Shown here in pieces: positions 9,276-58,757 of a stretch of DNA of 64,000 nt; position 1 is the first letter of the stretch, and the number at the start of each line of letters is the position of its first letter. The notes beneath the pieces are model-generated. The model was given only the letters and a program-made list of their open reading frames with translations, was not told the origin of the DNA and did not search any database. The translations under genes were made by a program, and so were the position numbers. Source of the DNA: a virus (Duplodnaviria > Caudoviricetes). Where the stretch lies: positions 1 to 64,000 of the IMG/VR virus record IMGVR_UViG_2671180089_000001. One strand, 5' to 3'.

Positions 9276-9296
9276 GGTTGACACCGTAGCGGCGGT

Positions 9297-9344
9297 GAGG
9301 TGACGTGACGCGGAACGGGCCCGGAAGCCGCGTCACGTCACCTC
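9297..9344. repeat. 17-bp perfect inverted repeat built from GTGA(C/G) units
   Basis: GAGGTGACGTGACGCGG / CCGCGTCACGTCACCTC. Confidence 0.7.
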
Positions 9345-15042: not shown

Positions 15043-15071
15043 CTGGTGTTTCCTCTTCTTCGCTGGTTCCC

Positions 15072-15118
15072 GTCGGCGGTGCTCTCCACCAACACCCCGA
15101 ATAGTACACCAAGGGAAA
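15072..15118 (-). promoter_or_regulatory. Early box plus AGAGCA leader hairpin
   Basis: TTTCCCTTGGTGTACTATT (15100-15118), then GUUGGUGG-AGAGCA-CCGCCGAC (15072-15093). Confidence 0.8.
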
Positions 15119-15181
15119 TCCAGCAAGCTCCTAACTGGGGAAATACCCAGTCGATTGCCCCGGGCTGACTGTTCCTGCGGG

Positions 15182-35162: not shown

Positions 35163-35201
35163 CACGGAGGCCCGGCCACCAACATTGGCCGGGCCTCCGT
35201 G
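35163..35201. terminator. Bidirectional terminator
   Basis: CACGGAGGCCCGGCCA / TGGCCGGGCCTCCGTG between convergent genes. Confidence 0.8.
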
Positions 35202-35219: not shown

Positions 35220-36158
35220 CTACTTGAGCGCCTCTCTGGCGGCCTTCCTGGTGGCCTTCTCCGCCTCCTGCATCCGCTCGAGGACCGCGTCGTAAACGGT
35301 GGTGTCCTCCGGGTCGGCGAACGCCTCCATGAGCCGAAGGGTCACCTCCGAGCGGGAGATCCGGGGACGGTTGAGGGCGTCTGCGATCTTGATGGCGGTC
35401 CTGTCGACGGCCCGGGTCACCGCGGGCGGGATCGCGCGGGAGACCGGCGGCTGGATCTCCTCGACGAGCACGCCCTTGATGGTCTTCGCCAGGGCGTCGA
35501 CGTCCTCGTCCTCGTCGAGCTTGAGGTCGCCCGGCAGCATCTTGACGGTGTTGCGGAGCCGCTCGGCGGTGACCTGGTCCGGGCCCCAGGAGTCGGCGAC
35601 CAGGACGTACACCGCGACGGCCGCGTTCAGATTGAAGGCGTTTTTGACCGGGACGATCTCACGGACCTGACCGGGGTTGACGTCGTAGCTGCGAGCGGCG
35701 AGGACTTCTCCGATCGCCCAGCCGGCGCGCAGCTTGCTGCACTTGCCAACTGAGATGCCTTTCTCCAGGGGCGCCCACTCCTCGATGGTGCGGTAGGTCC
35801 GCTCCGGCTCTAGCTTGTGTGGGGTGTCCCGAAACAGCTTGCCAGTGGCGATGGTGTCGAGGGCTTTGCCCTGGATGAACCAGGCTGTGTTGCCCAGGTC
35901 GACGCCCTCGAGGCACTCCTCGTACCGCGTCCGTTCCTCGTCGGTGAGCGCGCCCTCCCCGGCGGGCTCGACCGGGTCGGGGATCTTGTGGAGGCCAGGT
36001 CGGGCCTCCTCGACGGCGGTTTCGACGGCCTTCTCTATGGTCGCCTGGCGGTCCGCTTCGACGGCCTTGGAGCCCTCGGCCAACTTGCCTTTGCCGCGGC
36101 GCCGGGCCGAGCCCCAGCTCGCGTCTTGCGCCCACGCCTCCTTCTTGTCGTCGCTCAC
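35220..36158 (-). CDS. ParA partner (putative centromere-binding protein)
   Basis: GTGA overlap with the parA stop; basic N-terminal arm. Confidence 0.65.
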   Translation of the reverse strand: MSDDKKEAWAQDASWGSARRRGKGKLAEGSKAVEADRQATIEKAVETAVEEARPGLHKIPDPVEPAGEGALTDEERTRYEECLEGVDLGNTAWFIQGKALDTIATGKLFRDTPHKLEPERTYRTIEEWAPLEKGISVGKCSKLRAGWAIGEVLAARSYDVNPGQVREIVPVKNAFNLNAAVAVYVLVADSWGPDQVTAERLRNTVKMLPGDLKLDEDEDVDALAKTIKGVLVEEIQPPVSRAIPPAVTRAVDRTAIKIADALNRPRISRSEVTLRLMEAFADPEDTTVYDAVLERMQEAEKATRKAAREALK

Positions 36159-36994
36159 GCGGCATCCACCAGCCCGGCCTTGACCGCGATCGTGCGGAAG
36201 AACTCGGCGGTGTCCGACTTCGGCCGGTACATCTGGACCGGCTTGCCCTCGGCCTCTGCTTCGCCCAGGTCGGCGCCGCGGAACGGAATCTCGACGAGGG
36301 GCGCCAGGTCGGGGTGGCTGCGGAGCTGCTTCAGGATCACCTTGTTGTACTCCCCGCGCCCGTACAGGGCGAGGCTGATAACCATGCCGAGTTCGTGGAA
36401 GTCGTCGCGCTCGAGTTCTTCCATGATGCCCTCGTGCTGGTCGAGCTGGGAGCCGACAGCCTTCATCGCCCACTTGTGGGTATTGGCCATCATGAGGGCG
36501 CCGTGTGCCGCAGCGGTAATCGAGCTGGTGTCCGTGTCGATGGCCGGTCGGGTGTCGATCAGGATGTAGTCGTACTCGCCCTCGAAGTGGGCGAGCATCT
36601 TCCTGTGCGCGTGGAGCGCGTTGCCTCGCTCGCGCAGGCGCGCGGGGAGGAACGTCAGGTCGAGGCTGGACGGCAGGACGTGAATCAGCTCGAACGGCTT
36701 GGCGACCAGCGGGTGCGGGTCGAGACCCTTCAAGAGGCAGTCGGTCTGTGTGGGGCCCTCGTCCTCGTCGAGTCCGTCGAGCTTGAACCCGTCGGTGAGG
36801 TTCATGGACGGGTCGCCGTCCACGATCAGGACTCGCATGCCGTAGGAGGCGAGCGCGCCGGCGAGGTTCATGGTGGTCGTCGTCTTGCCGACGCCGCCCT
36901 TCTGGTTGCACATCGCGATGATGCGCGTCATCGTCGCGGGTCCGGTGAAGGGCCCGTAGCGGAGCCGTTCAATCTCGGCTGCTGATGTCGTCAT
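36155..36994 (-). CDS. parA: ParA/Soj family partition ATPase
   Basis: Deviant Walker A NQKGGVGKTT, VLIVDGDP, YDYILIDTRP. Confidence 0.92.
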   Translation of the reverse strand: MTTSAAEIERLRYGPFTGPATMTRIIAMCNQKGGVGKTTTTMNLAGALASYGMRVLIVDGDPSMNLTDGFKLDGLDEDEGPTQTDCLLKGLDPHPLVAKPFELIHVLPSSLDLTFLPARLRERGNALHAHRKMLAHFEGEYDYILIDTRPAIDTDTSSITAAAHGALMMANTHKWAMKAVGSQLDQHEGIMEELERDDFHELGMVISLALYGRGEYNKVILKQLRSHPDLAPLVEIPFRGADLGEAEAEGKPVQMYRPKSDTAEFFRTIAVKAGLVDAA

Positions 36995-37133
36995 GAGAGG
37001 GACGATAGTCAGACCGTCGCCATGTTTCGGGCAGTGAGCCCGTATAGGTACCGGCGGCGGCACGTGATAGGGCCCCGAACGTCACCCGTACGGGGCCCTG
37101 GAGAATTGCCCAATTGGGCAAGAATGATCTTGG

Positions 37134-37874
37134 TTACCTGCCGAAGGTGCGGCGCTGCGCGGCGTGGACGGCGAGCGCCTCCTCGAGGGCCTGTCCGTCG
37201 TAGTCGGGCCAGTGCCGGTCCTCGAAGTGCAGCGTGGCGTCCGCGGCCTGGTAGAGCAGGAAGCCGGACAGGCGGCGCTCTCCGCTGCTGCGGATGATGA
37301 GTTCGGGGTCGGGCAGGCCTGCGGTGGAGAGGAAGTCGTCCAAGGGCAGCTCCTGGCGCCCGTCGTAGTTGGGGGCGGTCAGGGACCGGGCGACGGCCTG
37401 GCGGACGTCGGCGCGGCCGTCGTAGCCGATGCCCAGGCAGACGGTCATGCCCTGGCGGTCGGCCGTGAGTCGTTCTGTCCGCTCGATCGCGGCCAGGAGC
37501 CGGCCGGGGACGAGGTAGAGGCCGGAGAGCTGGGAGAGAACTCGGACGGGGCCGGTGGAGACGGCCGCCTCAGTGTCGAGCAGGTCGACCAGCACATCGG
37601 TGAGGGCCTTGACCTGGGCTTCGGGGCGACCGAAGTTCCGCTCGGACATCAGGAAGACGGAGGCGGCCCCGACGCCGAGGGCGCGGCAGTGTTCGAGGAT
37701 CTGGTGGACGACGGCCGTGCCCTGCCGGTAGCCCTCTTCGACGGTGAGGCCGTGGGCGGTGGCCCAGCGGCGGTTGCCGTCGGCGATGAAGCCGATGTGG
37801 CGGGGGACGTCGAGGCGGTCAACGGCGGGCGCGGGAGCGGGAAGCGTCTGCATGGGCCGGAGGAGTACAGGCAT
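37134..37874 (-). CDS. uppS: cis-prenyltransferase (UppS family)
   Basis: HIGFIADGNRRWA, SERNFGR, YDGRAD, DPELIIRSSGERRLSGFLLYQ. Confidence 0.9.
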   Translation of the reverse strand: MPVLLRPMQTLPAPAPAVDRLDVPRHIGFIADGNRRWATAHGLTVEEGYRQGTAVVHQILEHCRALGVGAASVFLMSERNFGRPEAQVKALTDVLVDLLDTEAAVSTGPVRVLSQLSGLYLVPGRLLAAIERTERLTADRQGMTVCLGIGYDGRADVRQAVARSLTAPNYDGRQELPLDDFLSTAGLPDPELIIRSSGERRLSGFLLYQAADATLHFEDRHWPDYDGQALEEALAVHAAQRRTFGR

Positions 37875-37887
37875 GGCGGTCTTTACG

Positions 37888-38505
37888 TCATCCGGTGAGC
37901 GCGGCGAAGACCGCACCGGCGGTTGCGGTGCCCGCGGCGGCGCCGGCGATTGTCTGGGCGAGGGTGTGGTCGCGCAGGGAAATACGGGACCAGGCGATGA
38001 CGGCGACGAGCGGGTAGGCGAGCCAGACGAGCGGCCCCCAGGTGAGGGCGAGCATCGCCAGGGCGCCGCCGGCGACCGCGGTGTGCACGCTGATTTTCCA
38101 GAGCGCGGTGACCGGCAGTAGGACCGCGAGGGTGGCGAGCATCGCGACGACCAGGGCGACCATGTCGGTCGGGGCGTCGAGCCAGAGCATGCCGCCGATG
38201 CCGAGGCCGACCAACGCCATGATCACGGGGATGAGGATCATCCGGCGCTGTCGCTGCCCGATGTGCCGGTCGGCCCACATGCCCTTGCGCATGCCGTACT
38301 TGATGAAGGCCATGGGCAGGACCGCGGCGAACACGATGGCCTCGAGCGCCCAGAGCGCCCCGGTGATCGGGTTGTTCTGGGCCAGGCCGACGCCGAGGCT
38401 CACCCCGATGATGACGTTGCGCGGCTCCATTCCGTCGGTGATGAGGCGGGCCGCGCGGTTCTCCTCGCGGGCCGGGGTAGGAGCGGCGGTCGTGGTGCTG
38501 GTCAT
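37888..38505 (-). CDS. PAP2-like membrane phosphatase
   Basis: About 6 TM helices; WKISVH and SRISLRDHTLAQ (C2/C3-like motifs); ATGA overlap. Confidence 0.7.
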   Translation of the reverse strand: MTSTTTAAPTPAREENRAARLITDGMEPRNVIIGVSLGVGLAQNNPITGALWALEAIVFAAVLPMAFIKYGMRKGMWADRHIGQRQRRMILIPVIMALVGLGIGGMLWLDAPTDMVALVVAMLATLAVLLPVTALWKISVHTAVAGGALAMLALTWGPLVWLAYPLVAVIAWSRISLRDHTLAQTIAGAAAGTATAGAVFAALTG

Positions 38506-41710: not shown

Positions 41711-42005
41711 GCAGCCCATCGTGCCCCGGTTAAACCTCAGCCACCGAAAGCCCGCCACGACGCGCCGGTAGGTGAGTGCTTTGGCGCGCGTGGCCAGTTC
41801 AACCCCCTCCGGTATCAGCCACTCCATTACTGCTTCACGGCCTCGGCCACAGACGTCCGGCACGGTCGCATGTGGCCGCGCCACCCACCCCGAGGACCGG
41901 AGCGCTTGCGCGAGGACCGCAGGGCCACCCGTACGGCGGCGCGGTCGACCGCGGGCGCCAGCCTCTTACAGATAGCAGCAGCCCTCTGACCTGCGAAAAC
42001 GTGAT

Positions 42006-42116
42006 CGATCTATTCCTCTTGCGTGAATAGATCGTCTGGCAAACAGGGGCGTTGTATTCCGCCTAGCGGCATAGATCGTGTGCGTCAAGGGTATTGCCGC
42101 GACACGCGAATAGAAC
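42006..42116. repeat. AT-richer region with (GA)ATAGATCG repeats; candidate plasmid origin/operator
   Basis: CGATCTATTC 42006-42015, GAATAGATCG 42025-42034, ATAGATCG 42071-42078, GAATAGAAC 42108-42116. Confidence 0.55.
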
Positions 42117-42179
42117 TCTGCAAAAGTTGCGTCCTGTGCTAAGTTTTGCACTCCCAGGACGGAGGAAGGAGCAGGTCAA

Positions 42180-42728
42180 GTGCCTACACCTGCAAGGCGC
42201 TCAGCAGCAGTAACACCGCCGCTGACGGCCCGGCAGCGTCTTGCCCCCGTACCGCCTTCAGCGCCGTCGGACGACGTGCTGCGCGACATGGTCAAGGCGC
42301 TCGACAAAGTCGCGACCAACGGCGGGCTTATCAGCTCGGATCCGCCGAAGCGGCCGTACCAGTTCGCCAGCGGCCAGCACATCAGTCTCGACACTGACCT
42401 CCAGGCGAACCTTTGGCAGTTTGGTCTGTCGCCCATGGCCCGTGACCTGCTGGACCACATGGCCACCCACCATGACGACCGGGGCGAGTTGCTGACCACG
42501 CAGAAGAAGCTCGCGACGCACTTCGGGTGCTCGCAACCGAAGGTCAGCAAAGCCCTTACTCAACTCGATAAGCTGCATTTTGCCTGGAAGGTTCGCCGGG
42601 GGGTGCTGCAGGTGAACCCCACATACGCTTACCGGTGGGGCAGCAGGAAGCAGCGCGCCCTGATCGCACAACTCGGAGCGAAGTTCCTCCGGGAGCGCAC
42701 CATCGTGATTCCAGAGGCCGGGAGGTAG
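42180..42728 (+). CDS. RepL-like winged-HTH replication/maintenance protein
   Basis: TQKKLATHFGCSQPKVSKALTQL...RRGVLQVNPTYAYRWG. Confidence 0.7.
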   Translation: MPTPARRSAAVTPPLTARQRLAPVPPSAPSDDVLRDMVKALDKVATNGGLISSDPPKRPYQFASGQHISLDTDLQANLWQFGLSPMARDLLDHMATHHDDRGELLTTQKKLATHFGCSQPKVSKALTQLDKLHFAWKVRRGVLQVNPTYAYRWGSRKQRALIAQLGAKFLRERTIVIPEAGR

Positions 42729-42730
42729 TT

Positions 42731-43195
42731 GTGAGCACCGCGCTTGTCCGCAACCCCGATATGTTCGAGCGACTGCCTGACGCGAGTCTGGGCAAGACAG
42801 CCCGGGATGTCTTCGACATCCTCCAGGCTCGCCAGGAGCCGGCTGGCCTCGTCCGCATCTCACAGAAGCAGATCGCGGAGCGCCTGGGCATCACAGTGCC
42901 GTCAGTCTCCCGTGCCATAGGAGAGCTCAAGGACCGCGGGCTCGTCCACCCCCGGACCGTGCACGGCAAGGTCCAGATTCACCCACTGTTCGCGGCGTAC
43001 GAGTCGATGGCGCACATGGTGAACCATCTCAAGGAGGAGGGGACGCACCTATGGCCCCTGACCTTCCCCGGCAGGATGGTGCAGCTTCCGTCTGGAAATG
43101 ACCCGCGCGCGGGCACGTCCTTCGATCCGGACCCAGATGGAGGGGAGCCGGCGCCGCTGCCCGACGCAAAGCCTCCCCTGCGAATCGCAAGCTGA
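42731..43195 (+). CDS. Second RepL-like winged-HTH protein
   Basis: SQKQIAERLGITVPSVSRAIGELKDRGLV...VQIHPLFA; RBS GGAGG. Confidence 0.7.
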   Translation: MSTALVRNPDMFERLPDASLGKTARDVFDILQARQEPAGLVRISQKQIAERLGITVPSVSRAIGELKDRGLVHPRTVHGKVQIHPLFAAYESMAHMVNHLKEEGTHLWPLTFPGRMVQLPSGNDPRAGTSFDPDPDGGEPAPLPDAKPPLRIAS

Positions 43196-43213
43196 CCGGT
43201 CCGCACTTGTAGA

Positions 43214-43245
43214 AGGGGCGTCAACCTGGCCCGGTTGACGCCCCT
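43214..43245. terminator. Terminator hairpin
   Basis: AGGGGCGTCAACC / GGTTGACGCCCCT. Confidence 0.75.
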
Positions 43246-43334
43246 CTTAGCTACCCTGATTCCTCGCCGGAGCCAGGTACTGCTTGGTCCCGAGAATACA
43301 GGCTCCGGACCAGGCCCGGGCCGCCGTCACCTCG

Positions 43335-45243: not shown

Positions 45244-45616
45244 CAGGGGAGCGGAGCGCCTCGAGCGTGCGCTCGAGGGCGGCCCGATCCCACACGACTC
45301 CGACACCCGCCGCGCCCTGGCGGCCGCAGGCGGCCTGACGCCGGGCCACGGGCGCAACCCTGCCCGCGTCCAGCAGACGCACGACGTGATGATGGCGGCC
45401 TTCATGCGGACCTTGAATCCGTCTGAGGCCCGCGACGACGCCGGCACCGACGACGGCCTGGAGGAGATGGAGCTCCACCGCACGGAAATCACGCTCCCCG
45501 ACGGCGGCCAGCTCGTGGTGTCCGACCTCGAGCAAATCACCCCCGAGCGGCTGGAAGAGGCCGCGCAGATGGCCGCCGAGATACTCGCGCGTAGGGCGAA
45601 GGACCACCACAGTTGA
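45227..45616 (+). CDS. Putative soluble anti-sigma factor (RsbN N-terminus-like)
   Basis: Overlaps the sigma gene; RGAERLERALEG...RALAAA...MMAAF. Confidence 0.5.
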   Translation: MLQRADRGAERLERALEGGPIPHDSDTRRALAAAGGLTPGHGRNPARVQQTHDVMMAAFMRTLNPSEARDDAGTDDGLEEMELHRTEITLPDGGQLVVSDLEQITPERLEEAAQMAAEILARRAKDHHS

Positions 45617-47175
45617 GCAGCCCTACCGACAAGCTCGACATCGTCGTGGGGGAATTCCCCACCGATGCGATGCTGTGCAATCTCAACGGCGTGCGCACCC
45701 TGTTCCTGGGGGTGGACCAGACGTTCGGCCGGGCCGTGAGCAACGTGCGCAACGTACTGCCGGGCATCACCGTCGAGGCCGCCGAACGGATGGTTCGCGA
45801 GCAGGCCCCGGAGCTACGGGACTTCGACGAGCTGCTCGGGCGGACCGATCCCGTCCCGCCCAGCGTTGAGGGGCCCGCCGCCGCCCTGGTGGACGACGCC
45901 GTCAGGGAGCAGCTCCCGCGCGGTGCCGCCAAGCGTCGCCGGAGGGCTGTCCTCGTCGCCGCGCTGCTGCCCGCCCTCGCTGCAAGCTGGGCGGTAGGCC
46001 GGTACACGAACATCGACGACGCCACATCGACGACCGCAGCCAGCGCGCCGGACGCCTCACCGAGTCTGGCTGATGCCGACGTGGTGAAGGCACCCTTCGC
46101 CGACCCCCAATTCAAGTGGTTCAGCGGGTCGAGCGAGATCGTGTGCGACCCGATAAACGCACTTGAGGCGGAGTGCACCGACTCCGACGGCATAGTGATG
46201 GCGACGAAGGCCGCGACCGGTCCGGACTCGACGATCTTCACGTTCTCGTACGGCAGCGAACGCATCGGCCTGCGGATCTTCTACGACGCCAAGTACGCGG
46301 CAACCTGGGCTAAGCAAGACGGCTCCCGAGAGCTGTACCCGAACATGCGGACCCACGACCGGTACATCCTGTGGGGCACGGACCCCGACCGGATCAGGGA
46401 GTACAACGACCTCCTGGAGGACGCGGACAAGACGTCCGGGCCGACCGCGATGGGCGGCGCCACGCCGCTGCCGCCGCGGCTGGCCGCGCTCACGCTGGGC
46501 ACGCTCGGACTGGACGACCACGAGGTGACGCAGATCATCGCCGCCCCCCAGGCGGCGCCGACTGACACTCCCACCCTGCTCGCCGCCCGCCTGGTGCTGG
46601 GTCTGGACAGCACACCCACCTGGCCCGAGCCGGGCGACGACGACATCGTGGCACTCGCGGCCGGGATCGAGCCGAACCCGCCGACCACGTCTCCCTCCGG
46701 AGGCGGCACGTCCATGGTGGTGCCGGTCGTCGAGCCGGACGTATCCGTCACGCCCACGGCGTCGGCGGGCGGTTCGGAAACGGACACCACGCCTTCCGGC
46801 GGAGGGACAGGGACGTCCCCGACGTCGCCTCCGGTGACCGATCCGACGCCGAACGATCCCGAGCCGTCCACCCCCACCACGCCGACTCCACCCCCGGTGA
46901 CGGACCCGACGCCGAGTGGCCCCAAGACGACGCCTCCGGTGACGGACCCGACGCCGAGTGTTCCCAAGCCGACACCGCCGGCCACCGAGCAGCCGCCGCC
47001 GGCCGAGGAGACTCCGCCGCCCGTGGAGGAGACTCCGCCGCCTGTCGAAACCCCGGCGCCGCCAGTGGAGGAGACTCCGCCCACGGGGCAGGACGGAACC
47101 ATTCCGGCCGGGCCGGAGGAGAGCGGGGACGACCTGCTGATCCTGGACTCAGCCTGGACCGTCTCAGCCGCATGA
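45613..47175 (+). CDS. Single-pass membrane protein with a Pro/Thr-rich repeat tail
   Basis: TM after RRRRA; PPVTDPTP and PPVEETP repeats. Confidence 0.75.
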   Translation: MSSPTDKLDIVVGEFPTDAMLCNLNGVRTLFLGVDQTFGRAVSNVRNVLPGITVEAAERMVREQAPELRDFDELLGRTDPVPPSVEGPAAALVDDAVREQLPRGAAKRRRRAVLVAALLPALAASWAVGRYTNIDDATSTTAASAPDASPSLADADVVKAPFADPQFKWFSGSSEIVCDPINALEAECTDSDGIVMATKAATGPDSTIFTFSYGSERIGLRIFYDAKYAATWAKQDGSRELYPNMRTHDRYILWGTDPDRIREYNDLLEDADKTSGPTAMGGATPLPPRLAALTLGTLGLDDHEVTQIIAAPQAAPTDTPTLLAARLVLGLDSTPTWPEPGDDDIVALAAGIEPNPPTTSPSGGGTSMVVPVVEPDVSVTPTASAGGSETDTTPSGGGTGTSPTSPPVTDPTPNDPEPSTPTTPTPPPVTDPTPSGPKTTPPVTDPTPSVPKPTPPATEQPPPAEETPPPVEETPPPVETPAPPVEETPPTGQDGTIPAGPEESGDDLLILDSAWTVSAA

Positions 47176-50383: not shown

Positions 50384-50431
50384 GAGGAACGTAGAGGGGC
50401 GCGCCGCTTGTGTCGCGTGCTCCACAAAGCA

Positions 50432-51261: not shown

Positions 51262-51540
51262 ATGACCGCCACCGCGACCGCCGCCCGGAAGCTCTCCGAC
51301 CGCGCGCACCGCATCGTCTTCGAACTCGCCCTGCACGGCGGTGAGTGGGTCGACGTCACCGACATCTACACCCGCCTTGGGCTGACCTCGCACCAGGTGC
51401 GCAGCGCCCTGAACGAACTGATCTACGCGGGCATGGCCGAGAGGGAACGGCGCCCGGTGGCCTCCGAAACCGGATGCCGCCGCACGCACCGGACCTACTT
51501 CCGCCTGACCGACGAAACCCCGAGCGAGGCCCCTGCATGA
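51262..51540 (+). CDS. Winged-HTH protein
   Basis: VTDIYTRLGLTSHQVRSALNELIYAG. Confidence 0.7.
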   Translation: MTATATAARKLSDRAHRIVFELALHGGEWVDVTDIYTRLGLTSHQVRSALNELIYAGMAERERRPVASETGCRRTHRTYFRLTDETPSEAPA

Positions 51541-52586
51541 GCCGCCTGACCAGCCCCACCGGGGTGCGAGTCAACCGGCGTCCCCGGTTCGTCGCCATCG
51601 ACTCCAAGACGATCCGGGACACCACCATCAGCTACCGCGCGCTGGGGCTGCTCGGCTACATCCTGGACCAGAAGGAGGGGTGGCAGGTCCGATCCGACCA
51701 GCTCTCCAAGGGCGAGGGACGCGAGGGGCGCGGCGCGGTCCGTACGGCGCTGCGCGAGCTCGCCGAGCGCGGCTACTACCGGCTCGAGCGCCGCAGGCTG
51801 CGCACCGGCAAGTGCGTGATGGGCACGGCCGTCTCGGAGTACCCCGTCGAGCAGTGGATCAAGGACCACGAGATTTTCAGCACCGTGTCCGACCCGGCCG
51901 TCCCCGTGGTCGAGCAGGAAGACGGCTCGTTCCTCGTCGAGTACCCCGACGGCACCTTCGGCAGCGACGGGTTCGAGTCGGACCCGTTCGACAACGAGGA
52001 GCCGCCCGCCGATCCCGAGCCGGAGCCGGAGCCGGAGGACAGCGGCGAGGAGGACGAGGACACCGCGGAGGAACCGCCGGCCGAGCCGGAGAAGCCCCCG
52101 GTCCGCCCCCGGCGCACCCGCCGCACCTCGGCGCAGAAGGCGGCCGACGACGAGCAGAAGGCCGCCGAGAAGAAGCAGAAGGACGAGAAGAAGGCCGCCC
52201 TGGACGCCGCCGTCGAGGCGGTCGCGAAGTGGTGGTGGGAGGACGCCGAGAAGCACCTCGGCAAGTACGTCGGGAAGACCAACGGCTACTTGGCCATGCG
52301 CGGCATGGTGAAGAAGGCCCTCGAGGCGGGCTACACCCAACGGCAGTGCGCCGATGCCCTGCGGCACGCACGTAAGCACCTGCCCAGCGCGCAGCAGTGG
52401 CAGACCGCCCTCGGAGTCGCCACGAACCACATCGTCCCGAGCCAGCCCACCGGCCGGATCCCGTACAGCGACAAGGCGACGTGGGGTGCCCAGAACGACG
52501 CCCCGCCGTCCACGCCCGGCGACGCCCCCACCCCGGCCGCTGACGACTCCGACGACGCCACGTTCGGCGTCATCGCACGATCGTAA
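51537..52586 (+). CDS. Phage replication initiator (O-like wHTH)
   Basis: FVAIDS..IRD..ISYRALGLL.YIL...EGRGAVRTALRELAERGY; directly upstream of the loader ATPase. Confidence 0.75.
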   Translation: MSRLTSPTGVRVNRRPRFVAIDSKTIRDTTISYRALGLLGYILDQKEGWQVRSDQLSKGEGREGRGAVRTALRELAERGYYRLERRRLRTGKCVMGTAVSEYPVEQWIKDHEIFSTVSDPAVPVVEQEDGSFLVEYPDGTFGSDGFESDPFDNEEPPADPEPEPEPEDSGEEDEDTAEEPPAEPEKPPVRPRRTRRTSAQKAADDEQKAAEKKQKDEKKAALDAAVEAVAKWWWEDAEKHLGKYVGKTNGYLAMRGMVKKALEAGYTQRQCADALRHARKHLPSAQQWQTALGVATNHIVPSQPTGRIPYSDKATWGAQNDAPPSTPGDAPTPAADDSDDATFGVIARS

Positions 52587-52598
52587 GGAGCGCACCCG

Positions 52599-53408
52599 AT
52601 GTCGGCCACCACTCACGCCGCCCCCGCGCGCGGCATGAACGCCCTCGGCGACCTGAGCGAGCACATCGTCCGGGTGCTGCAGAAGAACGGCGCCGACATA
52701 TCCCAGCTCGGCATGCCGCCCCAGCCCGAACCCGAAGACGGGCTCTGGGAGGACGTCTCGGTTCCCCAGGCCCGCGCCCGCCTGAACATGTGGAGGAACA
52801 GCATCTACGACGCAGCCCAGAACGAGTACCTGGCCTTCCGCTTCAGCCACCTTGACGACAACCAGAAGCCGAACACCCTGCGGGGGTGGCTCGACTCCCT
52901 GGTCGAGGCGAAGAAGCTGGATGCCCGCCCGTCGGTCCTCAACATGCTCATCCCGGGGCCCATCGGCAGCGGAAAGAGTGCCGCGGCGTGCGCCCTCGGC
53001 AACGAGGCCGCGGAGCGCGGGCTGTGGGCGCTGTACGTGAAGCACGCGACGTACCTGACGTGGCGTCGCCCCGACTCCGCGCCGCACAACATGAAGGCGT
53101 GGGAGGTCCGAAAGCGGTTCGTCGAGTGTGACCTCCTGGTCCTCGACGAGCTGTGCGGCGAGATGGACGTCACCGCGACCGAGTTCGCCCGGCGGGAGAC
53201 CATCGACCTGATCGACGCCCGTATCTCCGCCGGGCGGCCCACCGCGTACACCACCAACCTGCGCAGCCGCAGGCAGCCGGGAAGCCAGGCCATGGGCGTA
53301 GTCGACATCCTGGGGGAGCGGCTGCTGTCCCGGCTCGAGTCCTCGGCGCACCTGGCGAAGATCGTGGGCCCGGACCGGCGGAAGCCCGTGCAGGCTCTCG
53401 ACTGGTGA
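52599..53408 (+). CDS. DnaC/IstB-like helicase loader ATPase
   Basis: GPIGSGKS, DLLVLDEL, PTAYTTNL, GERLLSRL, GPDRR. Confidence 0.88.
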   Translation: MSATTHAAPARGMNALGDLSEHIVRVLQKNGADISQLGMPPQPEPEDGLWEDVSVPQARARLNMWRNSIYDAAQNEYLAFRFSHLDDNQKPNTLRGWLDSLVEAKKLDARPSVLNMLIPGPIGSGKSAAACALGNEAAERGLWALYVKHATYLTWRRPDSAPHNMKAWEVRKRFVECDLLVLDELCGEMDVTATEFARRETIDLIDARISAGRPTAYTTNLRSRRQPGSQAMGVVDILGERLLSRLESSAHLAKIVGPDRRKPVQALDW

Positions 53409-55424: not shown

Positions 55425-57194
55425 ATGCCTGGTATCACCGCGCCTCAGCGCGCCCGCACGTCCCGCCGACCGACTGGCCTGCCGAACCCGCCGATGATCC
55501 TTATCGCGGGCCCGGAGAAGACCGGCAAGAGCCGCGTTGCGGCTGAGGGCACCGCCTCCGAGCTGGTCGGGATGACGTACTGGATCGAGATCGGCGGCTC
55601 CGAGGGCACGGCCGACTACTACGGTCGGATCCCCGGGGCCAACTACGAGATCGTGTCCCACAATGGCAGCTACCAGGACATCCTCGACGCCGTTCGGTGG
55701 GCCGTCGCGCAGCCGCCTGCCGTCGAGGGCAAGCGGAACATGATCGTGGTCGACAACGTGTCCGTGCTGTGGGACATGCTCAGCGACGAGCAGGCCCTCT
55801 ACGCCCGGTGGCGCGCGGAGAGGAAGGCGCAGGAGCAGCGCCGCCGCGGCCCGAACCCGGACCTTCCCGTCACGGTGGACCCCGACCTGTGGAACCGGGC
55901 GAAGGACCGATGGGGAGAGATCCTCTGGCTTCTGCGTCGGCACTCCGGCCCCACGATCCTGCTCGCCCGCCAGGAACTCGTCACCGCGTTCGAGAACGAC
56001 AAGCCGACCCGGGACAAGACCCGCAAGACCAAGGCCGAGAAGAACCTCCCGGCGTCCGTTGACGCCATCGTTGAACTTCACGCGCTGGGGGAGGCGTACC
56101 TGACCGGCGTGCGCACCCTGCACTGGGAAGTCACGCCCGGACAGAGCGAGCGGTTCGAGAATTTCAGTATCGACACCCTGCTCCGCCGCATGGGCTTTCA
56201 GGAGGCCGCGGCCGCCCGACAGGTCACCGAGACGCGGCCGCACGCGTACCTGGACGAGCAGCAGGTGCAGCGGGAGCAGCAGCAGCGCCCCCAGCAGCAG
56301 CGACAGCAGCGGCCCGACCAACGGCAGGGGCAGGGGCCCGCCCGGCAGGACGAGCGGCCGAAGCTGACCGGCGACCAGGCCGTCGAGCTGATCCGTAAGG
56401 CGCTCGCCGACGAGAACAACCCGGAGGCCGCGCTGCACAACATCCGGGAACAGTGGGGCATGGTCACCCTGCGGCAGATCCAGACCCGCACAGAGGCCTG
56501 GGGCGGGATGAACGCGGACGACCTGATCACCCGCTCCCTCGCATACGCCAAGGGCCGCGCCGAACAGAAGCGGCAGCAGGGAACCGGGAGCGCCGGGCAG
56601 GCCCCGTCCGCGCAGCCGAGCACGGCTCCGAGTGCGCCTCCGGAGCAAACTCCGACCGCATCCACGGCCACGCCCCCGGCCCAAGGCCAGGGCCAGGGCC
56701 AGCCGGAGGGTGCCCGCGAGCACCAGACGCACGAGGACCTCGAGCCGCCGGCCGATGACAACGCACCCCCGCCGCCGCCGGACCCCCAGTTCGACGACGA
56801 GCCCCCGGTCGACGAGCGCCCGGAGGAGGTCAGCGAGGCCGAGGAGCCCCAGGCGGCCCCCTCCGCACCGGCAGCCGCCGCGGCGCCTCGGGCAACGCGC
56901 CAGACGCGCGGCGAAAAGCTGGCACTCAAGGCGCTGAACGCCGAGGCAGTCGTCCAGGCCCGGATCAAGATGATGACGGTGGGTGAGCACCTCGGGCCTA
57001 TCTCCGAGGCGGGCGACCCGCCCATGACCGTGCTCCGGGACTACCTCCAGCAGCACCGGCCCGTGATCATCGCCCAGCTCGAGCAGGAGGGGCAGACGGA
57101 GCTCGCCGCCTACTACCGGAAGGCGCCGACCGTCGATCCTCAGATTCAGCAGAGGTTCGCTCAGTACTTCGAGGGCGCGCCCGCCGGGAAGTGA
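55425..57194 (+). CDS. AAA_24/Sak4-like recombination ATPase with a long low-complexity C-terminal region
   Basis: AGPEKTGKS, IVVDNVS; AGAGCAA hairpin at 55382-55396. Confidence 0.75.
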   Translation: MPGITAPQRARTSRRPTGLPNPPMILIAGPEKTGKSRVAAEGTASELVGMTYWIEIGGSEGTADYYGRIPGANYEIVSHNGSYQDILDAVRWAVAQPPAVEGKRNMIVVDNVSVLWDMLSDEQALYARWRAERKAQEQRRRGPNPDLPVTVDPDLWNRAKDRWGEILWLLRRHSGPTILLARQELVTAFENDKPTRDKTRKTKAEKNLPASVDAIVELHALGEAYLTGVRTLHWEVTPGQSERFENFSIDTLLRRMGFQEAAAARQVTETRPHAYLDEQQVQREQQQRPQQQRQQRPDQRQGQGPARQDERPKLTGDQAVELIRKALADENNPEAALHNIREQWGMVTLRQIQTRTEAWGGMNADDLITRSLAYAKGRAEQKRQQGTGSAGQAPSAQPSTAPSAPPEQTPTASTATPPAQGQGQGQPEGAREHQTHEDLEPPADDNAPPPPPDPQFDDEPPVDERPEEVSEAEEPQAAPSAPAAAAAPRATRQTRGEKLALKALNAEAVVQARIKMMTVGEHLGPISEAGDPPMTVLRDYLQQHRPVIIAQLEQEGQTELAAYYRKAPTVDPQIQQRFAQYFEGAPAGK

Positions 57195-57276
57195 CGTGAG
57201 GTGATGCGCGCCCGGCCCCCTTCGGGCGCGCGCCTCCGCCGCTCCGCTCCTCCGCGCTTTCATCACCTCACGTCAC
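57191..57276. repeat. 16-bp perfect inverted repeat of GTGA(C/G/T) units
   Basis: GTGACGTGAGGTGATG / CATCACCTCACGTCAC. Confidence 0.7.
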
Positions 57277-57946
57277 CTCGGCACGGCACGGCGCGCCCGC
57301 CCTCCCCCGTGCGCGCGCTCTGGTGATCGCGCGTCCAGTCCGGGACCGCGCTGCTCCGCGCCCGCGCCGTACCTACCGGCGCGCCCGGGCGCGCGCGTTC
57401 GGGCGCGCTCGGCATCGAGGCGCGCCCGAACGCGCGCGCCGCGCGCCGGCCGTGTGGAGCGCGCCTCCACGCGCGCGCTCAGGCGCGCCGGGCGCGCGCC
57501 GTGCCCGCGCCGATCCGGGCGCGCCCTCCGTAGATCGCGCGCGCCCGGATCGCATGGACCGCGCGCCCGCGCCGAGCCTCCCGCGCTCAGGCGCGCCCGC
57601 AGCAGCGCGCCATGGCGCGCACCGTTGACCTGCCCTTTTACAGGGCGCGCCGCGCGCCTGGCCGTCGCGCGCCACGATGGGCGCGGCCTCCTGGATATCG
57701 TCGGCCACGCGCGCCGGCCGTGTGGAGCGCGCCGCGCGGCGCGGTGATCGCTTCTCAACGGCGCGCGCCCGGCGGCGCGGATGACCAGGCGGGTGCGCGC
57801 CGACCGGCCGATCGCGCGCGCAGGGCCGCGCCCCAGGAACGCGCGCCGCCGCGCCCTCGGGCGCACCCCGGACACGACGAAGGGCGCGCCATCGGGCGCG
57901 CCCTTCGGGGAGGAACGGTCAGCCGGTGGCGCGCCCTATCGCGCGC
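57206..57946. repeat. GCGCGC-saturated non-coding tract
   Basis: About 30 runs of GCGCGC or longer by manual count; 25-bp direct repeat at 57441-57465 and 57709-57733. Confidence 0.85.
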
Positions 57947-58757
57947 CCTGCCGGGCCGCACGGCGGACCGCACGCCGCGCCCTGCGCTCCTCCGCGGCCT
58001 TCTCAAGCGCGCCGCCGCGCTCCTGGCGCAGCAGCTCCATCAGCTCCTCGGGGTGCCGCTCGCCGAGGACCTTGAGCGCCTGAAGCCGAACGTTCGGTTC
58101 GCTCGGCATCCGGCCCTGGCGCGCCTCCCCGTACTGGACGGAGTAGCGCAGGTACGCGGCCTCGGACTCCACGCGCCGGCGGAAGTTCTCGACCCGGCGC
58201 TCCTGTGCGTTGCCGCTCTCGCCCGCGGGCGGCTCGGGCATGAAGCGGGCCGGCTCCTCGATCATGAGGCGGCACAGACGCGCCACTCTCCCGGCTACTC
58301 TCGGTGAGCGGAAAGCAAGGGCCTCGACATGCGGGGACGTCGGGGCGGGCACTGGCTCGTCGAGGACGAAACCTGTCCACCGGTCCGCGAACGAGTCGTC
58401 ACCGAGGGCGGCCAGTTCCTTCGCGTGGTCGTGGGCCAGGTCGTCGACGACGTCCTCGAACGGCGGCATCGCTGCCTTGATCGTCTCTCGCCACGGCGCG
58501 ATGCGGGCCTGCTGCTGCTTCCTGGTCTCGCCCTCCCGGATGGGGTTGTAGGCCTTCGCCCGCTGCACGGCGGTTCGGAGCGCCTGGAGAGTGCGAGGGG
58601 CGAGACGGGGATCGTGAAGGGCGGCGCCCTGGGTCTCGCGCGGCGCGCGCCTGTTGGTGCCACCGGTGACGTACTGGACGACGGTGTCCGTGAAGGCGTC
58701 GGGGCTCATCTCGGACAAACGCTTGATCTCCGCCGCAACCTGTCGGGCATCGGCCAT
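57936..58757 (-). CDS. Hypothetical protein
   Basis: AGAGCA hairpin 58783-58800 plus RBS GGAGGA. Confidence 0.75.
   Translation of the reverse strand: MADARQVAAEIKRLSEMSPDAFTDTVVQYVTGGTNRRAPRETQGAALHDPRLAPRTLQALRTAVQRAKAYNPIREGETRKQQQARIAPWRETIKAAMPPFEDVVDDLAHDHAKELAALGDDSFADRWTGFVLDEPVPAPTSPHVEALAFRSPRVAGRVARLCRLMIEEPARFMPEPPAGESGNAQERRVENFRRRVESEAAYLRYSVQYGEARQGRMPSEPNVRLQALKVLGERHPEELMELLRQERGGALEKAAEERRARRAVRRAARQGAR

Follow-up and report, generated by a model that had tools for sequence, protein, structure and literature searches.

What could a non-coding tract of 741 bp and 81% GC be doing between two convergent genes of a phage genome? The tract occupies positions 57195-57935 of the stretch of viral DNA analysed here, 64,000 nt in length and called the window below, and is crowded with the hexamer GCGCGC: 42 copies were found in it, or 55.9 per kb, where the remaining window has 1.6. 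GC content was 0.809 at 57195-57946 (752 bp), compared with 0.708 for the whole window. In the same 752 bp we counted 35 maximal alternating G/C runs of at least 6 nt, most of them 6-7 nt and the longest 9 nt long, and 57195-57935 held 32 (GC)n cores when counted at n of at least 3. First-order Markov simulations of 752 bp (n = 1000 each) gave 2.4±1.6 runs for the dinucleotide content of the window (maximum 9) and 14.1±3.3 runs for that of the tract itself (maximum 26). The observed runs exceed both expectations, and the excess is therefore not due to composition alone. A preliminary description of this locus had counted about 30 GCGCGC runs where about 2 were expected, and the numbers above bear this out; the convergent orientation of the flanking genes and a direct repeat of 25 nt at 57441 and 57709, also reported there, were found as well. 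The tract is single in the 126,324-bp genome, where every other 750-bp stretch has 5 runs or fewer, and it is the most GC-rich and hardest-to-melt 740 bp of that genome. No coding signal was detected in it: codon periodicity was absent, open frames varied among relatives, and GC by codon position was flat (0.83/0.78/0.82), as compared to about 0.7/0.5/0.9 in the neighbouring genes. This agrees with the earlier impression that the ORFs across the tract are nonsense.

The element carrying the tract is a Gilgamesh-like Streptomyces phage-plasmid of about 126 kb, and its record is a circular permutation of Gilgamesh. The tract lies where the early replication/recombination operon meets the late structural-lysis operon of about 55 kb (Table 1). 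The ATPase on its left is composed of an N-terminal AAA_24/Sak4-like part, a small conserved middle domain, a disordered linker and a C-terminal helical domain. It matched Pfam AAA_24 at E 3e-4, below the curated cut-off, PHROG 1366 at E 3.5e-21 and a Sak4-like entry at E 3.3e-7; an Atlas search returned AAA_24 clusters only, and a PDB sequence search returned nothing useful. In Gordonia phage Clawz, the homologue of this ATPase is encoded between a RecE-like exonuclease and SSB. The model of its C-terminal half contained a helix-helix-helix-hairpin-helix domain, for which two fold searches yielded no winged-helix or other DNA-binding match and generic matches at Z up to 6.4. The 273-aa protein on the right had no Pfam or PHROG match. 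An alignment of 23 sequences and a structure model with a pLDDT of 89.5 were available for it; Foldseek returned no fold at E up to 0.001, VIA-align gave generic helical matches at Z up to 5.7, and in a search for distant homologues all 27 matches belonged to the same family, with at least 40% identity.

We are confident that the tract is not an artefact of assembly, a concern raised at the outset, since a like tract recurs in dozens of contigs assembled independently and in complete sequences as well, namely three plasmids and a finished phage genome. Eight of 50 related records end at or within it, which indicates that it is hard to assemble and that individual copy numbers may be imprecise. 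Among 42 related loci with both flanks, 37 carried a tract of the same kind (447-756 bp, 11-39 runs), three carried other C-rich tandem repeats, one an insertion and one a deletion; the absence in relatives considered in the preliminary description was thus not what we found. Its proposal of a conserved composition without sequence identity was borne out, the tract alignments scoring 0.57-0.64 against 0.53-0.59 for a shuffled control. In a viral collection, dense arrays occurred at 13 of 80 fetched loci, in all 13 cases between the same flanking genes. Position, size and motif density are kept although the tract sequence is barely alignable, and a coding signal is lacking. This supports the cis-acting DNA element that had been supposed from the window, and we read the tract as a lineage-specific, non-coding one.

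The exceptions among the relatives are of interest for what follows. In three of them (L004, L197 and L198) the interior was swapped for other C-rich tandem repeats and the central box described below was gone. These replacements are independent of each other (a 28-bp unit repeated 23.7 times, with 99% identity for a higher-order unit of 130 bp; a 15-bp unit repeated 70 times; and 14/22-bp units), and all three are C-rich on the same strand (C 0.50-0.53). L197 is nearly without GCGCGC, with 3 runs in 566 bp. Another relative carries a 2.4-kb insertion within the tract. The tract-less relative (G005/L026) is an element-sized contig of 126,055 bp, otherwise syntenic, in which the late-operon neighbour gene is truncated to 114 aa, ParA is kept and the C5 methylase is missing; it may be lysis-defective. 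Its presence as an element-sized contig suggests persistence in the plasmid state without need of the tract, which, judging from this one relative, would be dispensable for keeping the element as a plasmid.

The repeat unit is the octamer palindrome GGCGCGCC, which is the AscI/SgsI site, or its one-sided form GCGCGCC; GCGCGC is the BssHII site. The tract carries 10-17 AscI sites. The octamer type was dominant in each of the three clades, even where ATPase identity was as low as about 50%, and core density was near constant over 26 tracts, at 3.90±0.53 per 100 bp. Of the 684 cores in these tracts, 329 were full palindromes, 210 plus-only and 84 minus-only, and 25 of 27 tracts had more C than G on the ATPase-sense strand. 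A/T was enriched at ±5-7 from the core centres, which gives a site of about 14 bp. GATC, too, was more frequent than expected (102 observed against 26.4 in 25 tracts). Outside the tract, GCGCGC and GGCGCGCC were neither avoided nor enriched. We considered the octamer as a dispersed operator and rejected this: 20 of the 25 outside copies fell within ORFs of a crude gene set, and one copy, at 50398, was situated in the divergent early promoter region. The five copies outside ORFs include those at 49091 and 49432, in an unlisted region with a small-terminase homologue.

The spacing of the cores provided a further clue. Over the family, core pair distances peaked at 22, 33, 44, 55, 66, 77, 88 and 99 bp. 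The best period was 11.0 bp, with a statistic of 513.8, which neither random placement of the cores (160±26) nor shuffling of the gaps (217±34) reached in any of 500 trials each; these nulls count related tracts as independent. Phasing was positive in 25 of 26 tracts and separately significant in two clades; it was not significant in the most distant clade (59/500) nor in the window alone, where 472 of 1000 random placements reached it. Spacings in multiples of one helical turn imply that the GGCGCGCC and GCGCGCC copies face one side of the duplex.

Table 1. Genes and sequence features in and next to the tract (positions in the window).
Feature	Position	Strand	Remarks
589-aa ATPase, last gene of early replication/recombination operon	55425..57194	+	Pfam, PHROG, Atlas
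Left bracket, inverted repeat GAAGTGACGTGAGGTGA...TCACCTCACGTCACCTC	57188..57279	+	overlaps ATPase stop codon; encloses an inner GC hairpin
C-rich, G-poor 78-nt stretch, C/G 2.75	57231..57308	+	ATPase-sense strand
Array block A, GGCGCGCC/GCGCGCC cores, irregular spacings	57289..57613	.	quantised at 11 bp family-wide
Perfect palindrome, 21-bp stem, 11-nt loop	57388..57440	.	inverted repeat; fold -63.4 kcal/mol
25-nt direct repeat, copy 1	57441..57465	+	
Central module GGCGCGC-N5-TGACCTGC-N10-GGCGCGCC	57614..57651	+	sole conserved unique-sequence island within array
Array block B	57652..57877	.	
25-nt direct repeat, copy 2	57709..57733	+	
Right bracket, hairpin GAAGGGCGCGCC-loop-GGCGCGCCCTTC	57878..57908	-	about 30 nt past stop codon of convergent gene
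273-aa all-helical arginine-rich protein, last gene of late operon	57936..58757	-	always adjoins tract

Both margins of the tract are marked by hairpins. From its sequence, the left bracket looks like a terminator of the early operon (RNA fold -54.6 kcal/mol, z -4.9), and GTGACGTGA, which forms part of it, was found in the tracts of 20 of 27 relatives. The stem motif of this bracket also makes a hairpin at 9295-9341. The right bracket (-36.1 kcal/mol, z -3.4) looks terminator-like for the late operon in the same way. It includes invariant alignment columns, its GACGAAGGGC was present in 16 of 27 tracts, and the hairpin was kept in the variant L198. With the hairpins of both operons at the margins, the array lies beyond them. 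Inside the array, long hairpins were not conserved: a stem as long as that of the perfect palindrome occurred in 2 of 26 tracts only (the window and L030), making it a local feature, and stems of at least 10 bp were missing from 5 of 26 tracts. This points to duplex sites rather than to folded strands. The central module, on the other hand, was conserved. Its TGACCTG was detected in 21 of 27 tracts, each time between two octamers; where the tract measures about 740 bp, it sat 422-457 nt in from the left. The sole less GC-rich island in the tract is this box, about 12 nt at 57626-57643.

We tentatively favour the reading that the tract is a duplex-DNA platform for a sequence-specific protein and forms a boundary between the two operons. 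A protein-spreading platform had been listed among several options in the preliminary description and is the best reading that remains. About thirty sites are arranged in two blocks around the central box (TGACCTGC and two octamers), between the terminator-like hairpins. A sequence-specific protein, encoded by the phage or its host and probably a dimer with a footprint of ~20 bp, would bind these sites cooperatively on one face, and the bound protein would build up a large nucleoprotein block. Such a block might then serve as the border between early and late regions by halting RNA polymerases and/or replication forks that cross over. It is the position of the tract, and that alone, which suggests this boundary role.

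Several observations sit uneasily with a platform. The models of both neighbouring proteins gave no match to a DNA-binding fold, and the 11-bp phasing is a property of the ensemble, not significant in the window alone or in the most distant clade. A strictly sequence-specific platform would not predict the replacements in L004, L197 and L198, unless these alleles arose recently and are defective. The orientation bias that we observed, be it in the one-sided cores (210 vs 84) or in the excess of C over G (25/27), is more than a purely palindromic site calls for. The insertion of 2.4 kb inside the tract was tolerated in one relative, and RNA transcribed from the tract would fold very stably (z -6.1).

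A possible, if unlikely, alternative is a lytic replication origin or cis-replication region, in which the octamers would be iterons for the phage's initiator or helicase-loading proteins, encoded in the same operon 4-6 kb upstream, and the central box would be the opening or loading site. The tract indeed closes a replication module, with an HTH/initiator-like gene (51345-52586), a DnaC-like loader (52599-53408) and the Sak4-like ATPase, and its many short repeated sites make up two blocks that flank a unique, less GC-rich box. Streptomyces oriC and P4 ori/crr likewise carry many short boxes. The tract was also kept in a ParA-less relative whose element sits in a 7.46-Mb contig. Against an origin stand the extreme GC content throughout, with no AT-rich unwinding element, and the convergence of genes on the tract, which is better suited to a terminus. 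A GC-skew search for an origin or terminus found skew that follows gene orientation only, and the divergent promoter region from which the replication operon starts showed no cluster of octamers, the copy at 50398 being the one present there. For a plasmid origin, the tract-less relative on its own 126,055-bp contig is a further counter-argument. It does not address lytic replication, and its truncated late gene, with the lysis defect that it may have, would be compatible with an origin of the lytic kind.

The tract could also act at the level of RNA, as a shared 3' end zone of both operons where stacked GC hairpins and Rho loading at a C-rich stretch would end transcription and shield the 3' ends of the mRNAs; we consider this quite unlikely. 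Its setting between convergent genes and the terminator-like hairpins at both margins speak for it, as does the 78-nt stretch directly after the ATPase stop codon, the composition of which resembles that of a Rho utilisation site. This stretch is positionally conserved: 22 of 26 tracts had the start of their maximum-C/G segment 30-77 nt in from the left, and the median maximum C/G was 2.12 in the tracts against 1.72 in the upstream gene. PMC6407284 describes Rho loading for a 78-nt segment with C/G above 1 and regular C spacing, structure being inhibitory. The stretch fits these compositional criteria, including a C spacing of 11-13 nt. The fold of the whole tract (-503 kcal/mol) and the C-richness of all three tandem-repeat variants on the same strand are in line with a role in RNA, too. 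However, the interior of the tract has a C/G of just 0.8-1.4 and is highly structured, which would inhibit Rho loading according to the same paper (PMC6407284). A scan for consensus promoters and terminators gave no match, and none in particular to an intrinsic terminator with a U tract, and stems of at least 10 bp are not found in every tract, as noted above. Searched at a permissive threshold, Rfam gave no family at gathering score; it gave five miRNA-type matches of at most 32.9 bits, where gathering requires at least 75, four on the palindrome at 57388-57440 and one at 57881-57949 on the right hairpin. Moreover, two marginal hairpins would suffice for such a role, and 600 bp of conserved motif density with helical phasing would be left unexplained.

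Could the array instead be read through methylation? The palindromes and the enriched GATC would then be targets of the C5 methyltransferase encoded at 13723-15126, and a protein would read the methylation of the phased cluster to time replication, packaging or late expression, or to mark self DNA. SeqA reads GATC clusters at oriC in such a manner, and P1 pac depends on the methylation of its hexamers. C5 methylases act on short CpG-rich palindromes such as this motif, and its sites are in helical phase. A methylase homologue was found in 13 of 15 element-bearing bacterial genomes and in all three virus records that are at least 87% complete. The two methylase-less genomes were the tract-less G005/L026 and one with a tract of 607 bp, as compared to 725-743 bp in its nearest relatives. 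This association was not significant, as the tract-less case would fall among the two methylase-less genomes by chance in 2 of 15 cases; one methylase-less relative still has 27 runs, and no methylase family was recognised among the genes that replace the methylase in the tract-less relative. The Pfam match covers only the N-terminal part of the enzyme and a PDB sequence search found no match to a solved structure. GCGCGC occurs at the expected frequency elsewhere in the genome. A link between the tract and the element's C5 methylase is a weak lead, and methylation read-out appears rather improbable to us.

Returning to the protein platform, a bolder version of it may be worth stating, although we regard it as a long shot: the tract would be a phage-built, chromatin-like insulator, in which a protein polymerises on one face of the ~thirty phased GGCGCGCC sites, possibly only once these are C5-methylated, and acts as a polar barrier to forks and RNA polymerase where the early programme runs into the late one of 55 kb. 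If true, phages would have their own equivalent of Tus-Ter or of the fork barrier in ribosomal DNA, one whose methylation is read in the manner of SeqA.

It is decidedly unlikely, in our view, that the tract has no sequence-specific function at all and is a slippage-prone GC-rich spacer retained because of some bulk property (its length, its thermal stability, or a topology with gyrase access as in BIME-2), the motif being a by-product of local amplification. Rapid sequence turnover, with three independent tandem-repeat replacements, would be expected of such a spacer, and one insertion and one deletion were tolerated while contigs broke at the tract in eight of the 50 records. Gyrase, moreover, has a preference for phased sequences, for regions downstream of transcribed units and for BIME-2 (PMC6379681). 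A bulk property, however, does not need the same octamer to be dominant in three clades, nor does it account for a conserved central box with flanking octamers. We found no periodicity of A/T content in the tract, unlike what is described for the gyrase-wrap motif in that paper (PMC6379681), and REP/BIME are dispersed in many copies whereas the tract is single in its genome.

Four further functions proposed in the preliminary description are, taken together, very unlikely. A clt-like locus would fit with an array that directly follows an ATPase gene, given that clt loci carry 8-bp repeats (PMC4447253), but no TraB of the FtsK/SpoIIIE type is encoded and the neighbouring ATPase is AAA_24/Sak4-like, with homologues in recombination modules. 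A packaging (pac/cos) site is disfavoured by the distance of about 8 kb to the gene annotated as small terminase in Gilgamesh, as well as by the tract not being at the ends of the Gilgamesh record. A restriction decoy is suggested by both words being restriction sites, and for it one would look to the rest of the genome, where GCGCGC and GGCGCGCC were neither avoided nor enriched. Z-DNA is difficult to reconcile with alternating runs of 6-9 nt only and with the L197 repeat, which has only 3 runs; short alternating runs pay two B-Z junctions each. Least credible of all is a partition centromere for the element's ParA (36155-37063, followed by a protein of about 300 aa without Pfam family) and its partner: the tract is the most conspicuous repeat array of a genome that exists as a plasmid of about 126 kb, there is no repeat array beside the ParA operon, and in phage N15 the centromere sites are likewise remote from the sop genes, but a ParA homologue (E up to 1e-35) occurred in only 6 of 15 element-bearing bacterial genomes, eight genomes have a complete tract without ParA, one of them with the element in the 7.46-Mb contig, and ParA is present in the tract-less relative, itself an element-sized contig.

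To our knowledge, little is understood of the large temperate actinophages that persist as plasmids, and hardly any of their cis-acting sites have been mapped. The tract offers a conserved and tractable cis element, single in its genome, easily deleted or transplanted, and present in the cultivable Gilgamesh (Streptomyces lividans). Should it prove to be a protein platform, a new DNA-binding specificity would come to light, along with a phage means of separating converging gene programmes; should it be read via C5 methylation, the literature searched has no earlier example of such a cluster in actinophages. Its tendency to break assemblies and its AscI sites matter for sequencing and cloning these elements in any case. 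Literature searches turned up no paper on Gilgamesh as a Streptomyces phage, and the texts consulted on Streptomyces phage-plasmids do not mention this element. For the octamer in Streptomyces repeats and for GCGCGCC in phages, nothing but primers and adaptors came up.

How, then, does the tract compare with known systems? With iteron arrays such as P1 incA/incC, P4 ori and crr and the DnaA-box cluster of Streptomyces oriC, it has in common many short words in non-coding DNA near replication genes, protein binding being the feature of iterons. It differs from them in its extreme GC content, the lack of an AT-rich opening element, its converging genes and its dispensability in a relative in the plasmid state. 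The SeqA/GATC cluster and P1 pac resemble it by their short methylatable palindromes clustered on one helix face, and the element here does encode a DNA methylase; there it is N6-adenine that is methylated, whereas here it would be C5-cytosine. As to a Rho-dependent terminator, the tract has a stretch of about 78 nt with C above G after the last early gene, followed by hairpins, but the likeness extends to only the first 100 nt or so, the array not being C-rich and being strongly self-complementary. REP/BIME-2 are described in PMC3733652 and PMC6379681 as clustered GC-rich palindromic intergenic units at gene 3' ends, often between convergent genes, for which roles in termination, in mRNA stability and in the binding of gyrase have been suggested. 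REP units, however, measure 20-40 bp and are dispersed in many copies per chromosome, whereas the unit of the tract has 8 bp, occupies one phage locus and shows no A/T phasing. The Streptomyces clt loci carry 8-bp repeats recognised by the adjacent translocase (PMC4447253); the same host genus and several 8-bp words directly downstream of an ATPase gene are found here. The clt repeats are direct and read by a translocase of the FtsK/SpoIIIE type, while the tract has ~30 sites, half of them palindromic, beside a Sak4-like ATPase.

A last comparison concerns R1 parC, a locus of 159 bp with 10 contiguous direct repeats beside its own parMR. The tract, at 740 bp, has ~30 mostly palindromic, non-contiguous sites, no adjacent parM or parR and no dependence on the element's ParA, its neighbours being the Sak4-like ATPase and the helical protein. 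Both have short sites in two blocks and a central unique region; the helical register of parC (11 bp) is seen for the tract across the family but not in the window alone. At parC, ParR binds 11-bp-phased sites, two blocks of which surround a central region, cooperatively and with one dimer per site, and the DNA folds (PMC2241845). By analogy with this precedent, an arrangement like that of the tract may well be able to bear a cooperative protein complex.

The tract, a GCGCGC-rich stretch between the gene of an AAA_24/Sak4-like ATPase (589 aa, last of the early operon) and the convergent late gene for a 273-aa protein, is a real, unique, non-coding and family-specific element whose place and composition are conserved. 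It measured 741 bp with 81% GC, as compared with 70.8% for the window. We counted 35 maximal alternating G/C runs of at least 6 nt or, alternatively, 32 (GC)n cores with n ≥ 3, where window composition predicted 2.4 ± 1.6 runs (maximum 9; first-order Markov, 1000 simulations) and a simulated model of the tract's own dinucleotide content 14.1 ± 3.3 (maximum 26). GCGCGC occurred at 55.9 per kb in the tract and at 1.6 per kb elsewhere in the window. Any other 750-bp stretch of the 126,324-bp record, whose first half the window makes up, held at most 5 runs, and outside the tract the whole record contained 183 GCGCGC (183.3 expected) and 25 copies of the octamer GGCGCGCC (30.5 expected). GC was flat over codon positions (0.83/0.78/0.82), in which the surrounding real genes differ, and an Rfam search of the tract returned no family at its threshold. 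The saturation claimed in the preliminary description (about 30 runs where about 2 were expected) was thus confirmed by the run and core counts, its non-coding nature by the flat codon-position GC; the convergent flanking genes and the 25-nt direct repeat were also found as described. No published description of the tract was found in the literature searched, which omits most subscription journals and supplements.

The window encodes ParA, a ParB-like protein, an HTH/initiator-like protein, a DnaC-like loader, a DUF2637 membrane protein, SSB, an amidase, a C5 DNA methylase and tail proteins. Over their full length, the 3.5 kb around the tract aligned with Streptomyces phage Gilgamesh (129 kb, 76.5% identity), and they aligned also with three Streptomyces plasmids (125–130 kb, recorded circular, 68–69% identity). 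Relative to Gilgamesh, the IMG/VR record is circularly permuted. The element is therefore a phage-plasmid. Replication and recombination genes (50.6 to 57.2 kb) run rightward into the tract and structure, tail and lysis genes (about 112 kb down to 57.9 kb) leftward into it, which places the tract at the convergence of the early and late blocks. The table also lists a very long frame in the late operon, a coding repeat and two genes of the variable 'plasmid' segment, both missing in a relative embedded in a chromosome-sized contig.

Relatives were gathered by an ATPase protein search of viral and genome collections, by alignment of the 273-aa neighbour and from phage and plasmid databases, giving 50 records (L020 and L037, identical in counts, are probably one genome entered twice). 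Eight stop at or within the tract (L010, L016, L022, L025, L027, L181, L185, L189). Among the 42 loci with both flanking genes, 37 had a tract of 447–756 bp with 11–39 runs and three had other tandem repeats at its position. The provirus L009 carried a 2.4-kb insertion of about 65% GC inside the tract (L009:5890–8290), whose two ORFs (281 and 429 aa) matched no Pfam family; in the related locus L026 the tract was gone, and the adjacent late gene was missing its final 60%. Length was near-constant in the closest group (741, 742, 734, 742 and 739 bp for the window and four database relatives). Global identity to the window dropped with distance from 0.82 to 0.57 (shuffled controls 0.53–0.59), a turnover comparable in speed to that of the ATPase gene at its poorly conserved end. 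Composition kept without sequence identity, which the preliminary description had proposed to look for in relatives, was therefore observed, together with position, length and motif. From the viral collection, at least 80 loci were listed as having three GGCGCGCC inside about 70 bp. Among the 80 listed matches 13 had at least 15 runs per 750 bp, and the same two genes flanked 13 of 13, so that the array belongs to the phage family and to the position.

The tract is defined by its unit (GGCGCGCC/GCGCGCC), a constant density, an orientation bias, a family-wide 11-bp phasing, a central module and bracketing hairpins. Over 26 tracts (3.90 ± 0.53 cores per 100 bp), 329 of 684 cores were full palindromes G(GC)nC. 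Of the others, read on the ATPase-sense strand, 210 retained the 3′ C alone, 84 the 5′ G alone, and 61 lacked both. In 22 of 26 tracts the one-sided cores leaned towards the ATPase-sense orientation, and 25 of 27 tracts had more C than G on that strand. A/T was raised 5–7 nt to each side of core centres (0.27–0.36, compared with about 0.20), and GATC was about four-fold enriched within tracts (102 observed, 26.4 expected, 25 tracts), often as GATCGCGCGC. Of 27 tracts, 21 contained the central box TGACCTGC; its distance from the ends was conserved, and it had octamers on both sides every time. At the margins, the arm word of the left inverted repeat was found in 20 of 27 tracts, a C/G maximum at the matching position in 22 of 26 relatives, and the right hairpin, invariant in a five-way alignment, in 16 of 27. 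Long perfect stems were not conserved (none of at least 10 bp in 5 of 26 tracts).

Positions of the tract, its parts, the variant arrays and other features (window coordinates; G000:C1, whole-genome coordinates beyond the window)
Feature	Position	Particulars
Tract limits	57195–57935	stop codon of 55425–57194 (+) to stop codon of 57936–58757 (−)
Left margin inverted repeat	57188–57279	overlaps ATPase stop codon; RNA fold −54.6 kcal/mol, z −4.9
C-rich, G-poor stretch	57231–57308	within and just past left hairpin; C/G 2.75
21-bp palindrome	57388–57440	common to window and related locus L030 only
Central module	57614–57651	splits array; GGCGCGC-N5-TGACCTGC-N10-GGCGCGCC
Right margin hairpin	57878–57908	about 30 nt past late-gene stop codon; fold −36.1 kcal/mol
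TGACCTGC copies	6357, 41987, 42178, 42443, 57626; G000:C1 81216, 124434, 125308	
Stretch without ORF passing codon-bias filter	41711–43334	1.6 kb; three TGACCTGC copies
Intergenic hairpin	9295–9341	near-perfect; stem word GAGGTGACGTGAC, as in left margin of tract
C5 methylase	13723–15126 (−)	467 aa; Pfam match confined to first conserved block, residues 82–171
PAPS-reductase-domain gene	29464–30564 (+)	variable 'plasmid' segment
Hairpin beside ParA operon	35163–35201	perfect 16-bp stem
Gene after ParA	35220–36170 (−)	overlaps end of ParA; about 300 aa, no Pfam family
Undecaprenyl-diphosphate-synthase-family gene	37134–37916 (−)	Pfam E 1e-49; adjoins ParA, variable 'plasmid' segment
Coding repeat	47005–47072	14-nt word GAGGAGACTCCGCC ×3, spacing 21 and 42 nt, inside gene 45613–47175
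Single open frame	G000:C1:84521–96265 (−)	3,914 aa, late operon, outside window; relatives conserve only parts
ATCTGCGGCA cluster	G000:C1:119231–119317	×3, both orientations, within 90 bp; outside window
GATGGGATGAG cluster	G000:C1:125036–125102	three to four times within 70 bp; outside window
Variant array	L004 (complete plasmid)	28-bp unit ×23.7; 130-bp higher-order unit, 99% identity; total still 739 bp
Variant array	L197	14/22-bp units built on CCGCGCCACCG; 566 bp, 89% GC, only 3 alternating runs
Variant array	L198	15-bp unit about GGATCGCCCCCGCGC, ×70; 1187 bp

Two words of the tract recur elsewhere. The intergenic hairpin with stem word GAGGTGACGTGAC looks like the terminator style of the phage and probably represents a recurring site, either a terminator or one for a protein. 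TGACCTGC, with 16 copies in the 126-kb genome where composition would give roughly 4–5, may be a regulatory word of the phage; about half of them fall where there is no confident ORF, and three fall within 41.9–42.5 kb, in a candidate regulatory or immunity region.

Core-centre distances clustered at 22, 32–33, 44–45, 54, 65–66, 77, 87–88 and 98–99 bp. The best period for 26 tracts was 11.0 bp with a statistic of 513.8, reached in 0 of 500 random placements (160 ± 26) and in 0 of 500 gap shuffles within each tract (217 ± 34), a significance overstated by these nulls, which take related tracts as independent. The statistic was positive in 25 of 26 tracts. Clade A (6 tracts, 145.0) and clade B (12 tracts, 315.5) each had a best period of 11.0 bp, reached in 0 of 500 random placements; at 10.9 bp, the most distant clade (8 tracts, 56.9, 59/500) and the window alone (20.9, 472/1000) were not significant. 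The 11-bp period recurs in groups whose tracts are no longer alignable, and A/T content showed no such period. One-turn phasing of duplex sites is the expected look of cooperative binding on one DNA face. We tentatively favor, as a reading a little short of probable, that the tract is a protein platform or boundary: it would act as duplex DNA carrying a cooperative protein complex, in a role tied to the place where the early and late operons meet and not to plasmid maintenance.

The main evidence against a platform or boundary comes from the variant arrays of L004, L197 and L198. All three lack the central box and are strongly C-rich on the ATPase-sense strand (C 0.50–0.53, G 0.31–0.36); L004 has 23 GCGCGCC on that strand and 2 on the other, L198 keeps both marginal hairpins, and the repeat units of L004 (29 copies) and L198 (51) have GATC as their core. 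They could signify that what counts is a bulk property with a strand bias and not the octamer. We give more weight to recent amplifications that wrecked the normal array, since the octamer array is the state in all three clades; the variants are rare (3/42) and at least one is very young.

A lytic origin or cis-replication element is unlikely, the tract being the least meltable DNA of the genome, with genes converging on it. Quite unlikely, too, is a cluster read through methylation. Of 15 genomes, 13 had a C5 methylase homologue, as did all 3 virus records of 87% completeness or more (smaller fragments being uninformative). The two methylase-less genomes were the tract-less relative and one with a 607-bp tract (725–743 bp in its nearest relatives), an association that is suggestive but weak: the one tract-less genome would fall among these two by chance with a probability of 2 in 15. 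The methylase had no sequence match among solved structures and, judged by its sequence, is a divergent enzyme; neither the Pfam match nor the structure search pointed to a target. We would hardly expect an RNA-level termination zone either. The tract RNA is predicted to be very stable (−503 kcal/mol, z −6.1), and the left 100 nt have C/G > 1 over 78 nt with a C every 11–13 nt, the composition rule for Rho loading given in PMC6407284, but the interior is neither C-rich nor unstructured. A spacer acting by bulk properties is improbable; the tract's position would suit a role in topology, its exact 8-bp word and missing A/T phasing would not.

The remaining ideas of the preliminary description are, even together, very improbable. 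Z-DNA has a minimum length requirement for alternating runs, and GGCGCGCC and GCGCGC are sites of named restriction enzymes (AscI/SgsI and BssHII, respectively). A clt-like locus is disfavored by the adjoining ATPase, which is AAA_24/Sak4-like and whose homologue in Gordonia phage Clawz lies between a RecE-like exonuclease and SSB, without array; a packaging site, by the tract's place, which is not at the Gilgamesh record ends and is about 8 kb away from the gene that the Gilgamesh annotation calls small terminase. A ParA centromere, also suggested there, is extremely improbable: of the 15 bacterial genomes with the element, 6 yielded a ParA homologue (E ≤ 1e-35) and eight had a complete tract without ParA, one of these eight having its element in a 7.46-Mb contig, without the entire 19–45 kb 'plasmid' segment, and the tract-less relative, an otherwise syntenic 126,055-bp contig, kept ParA. 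By this distribution the tract is not tied to ParA, and the single natural deletion suggests that it would be dispensable for persistence in the plasmid state. The protein encoded after ParA could be a centromere-binding partner of a new kind; beside the ParA operon there were no repeats, only a hairpin. The GATGGGATGAG and ATCTGCGGCA clusters are candidate operators or partition sites.

Among known systems, the tract can be compared with SeqA/GATC, P1 pac and incA, P4 crr, the N15 centromeres, Tus-Ter and the rDNA fork barrier. According to PMC6379681, gyrase has a preference for DNA that is phased, for regions that follow active operons and for BIME-2 clusters, and phage Mu has a strong gyrase site; the tract resembles such sites in position and differs by its exact word and lack of A/T phasing. 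R1 parC, as described in PMC2241845, has a 39-bp centre with five 11-bp iterons on each side, and each iteron takes one ParR dimer; the tract family compares with it in the 11-bp phasing, which was not significant in the window alone.
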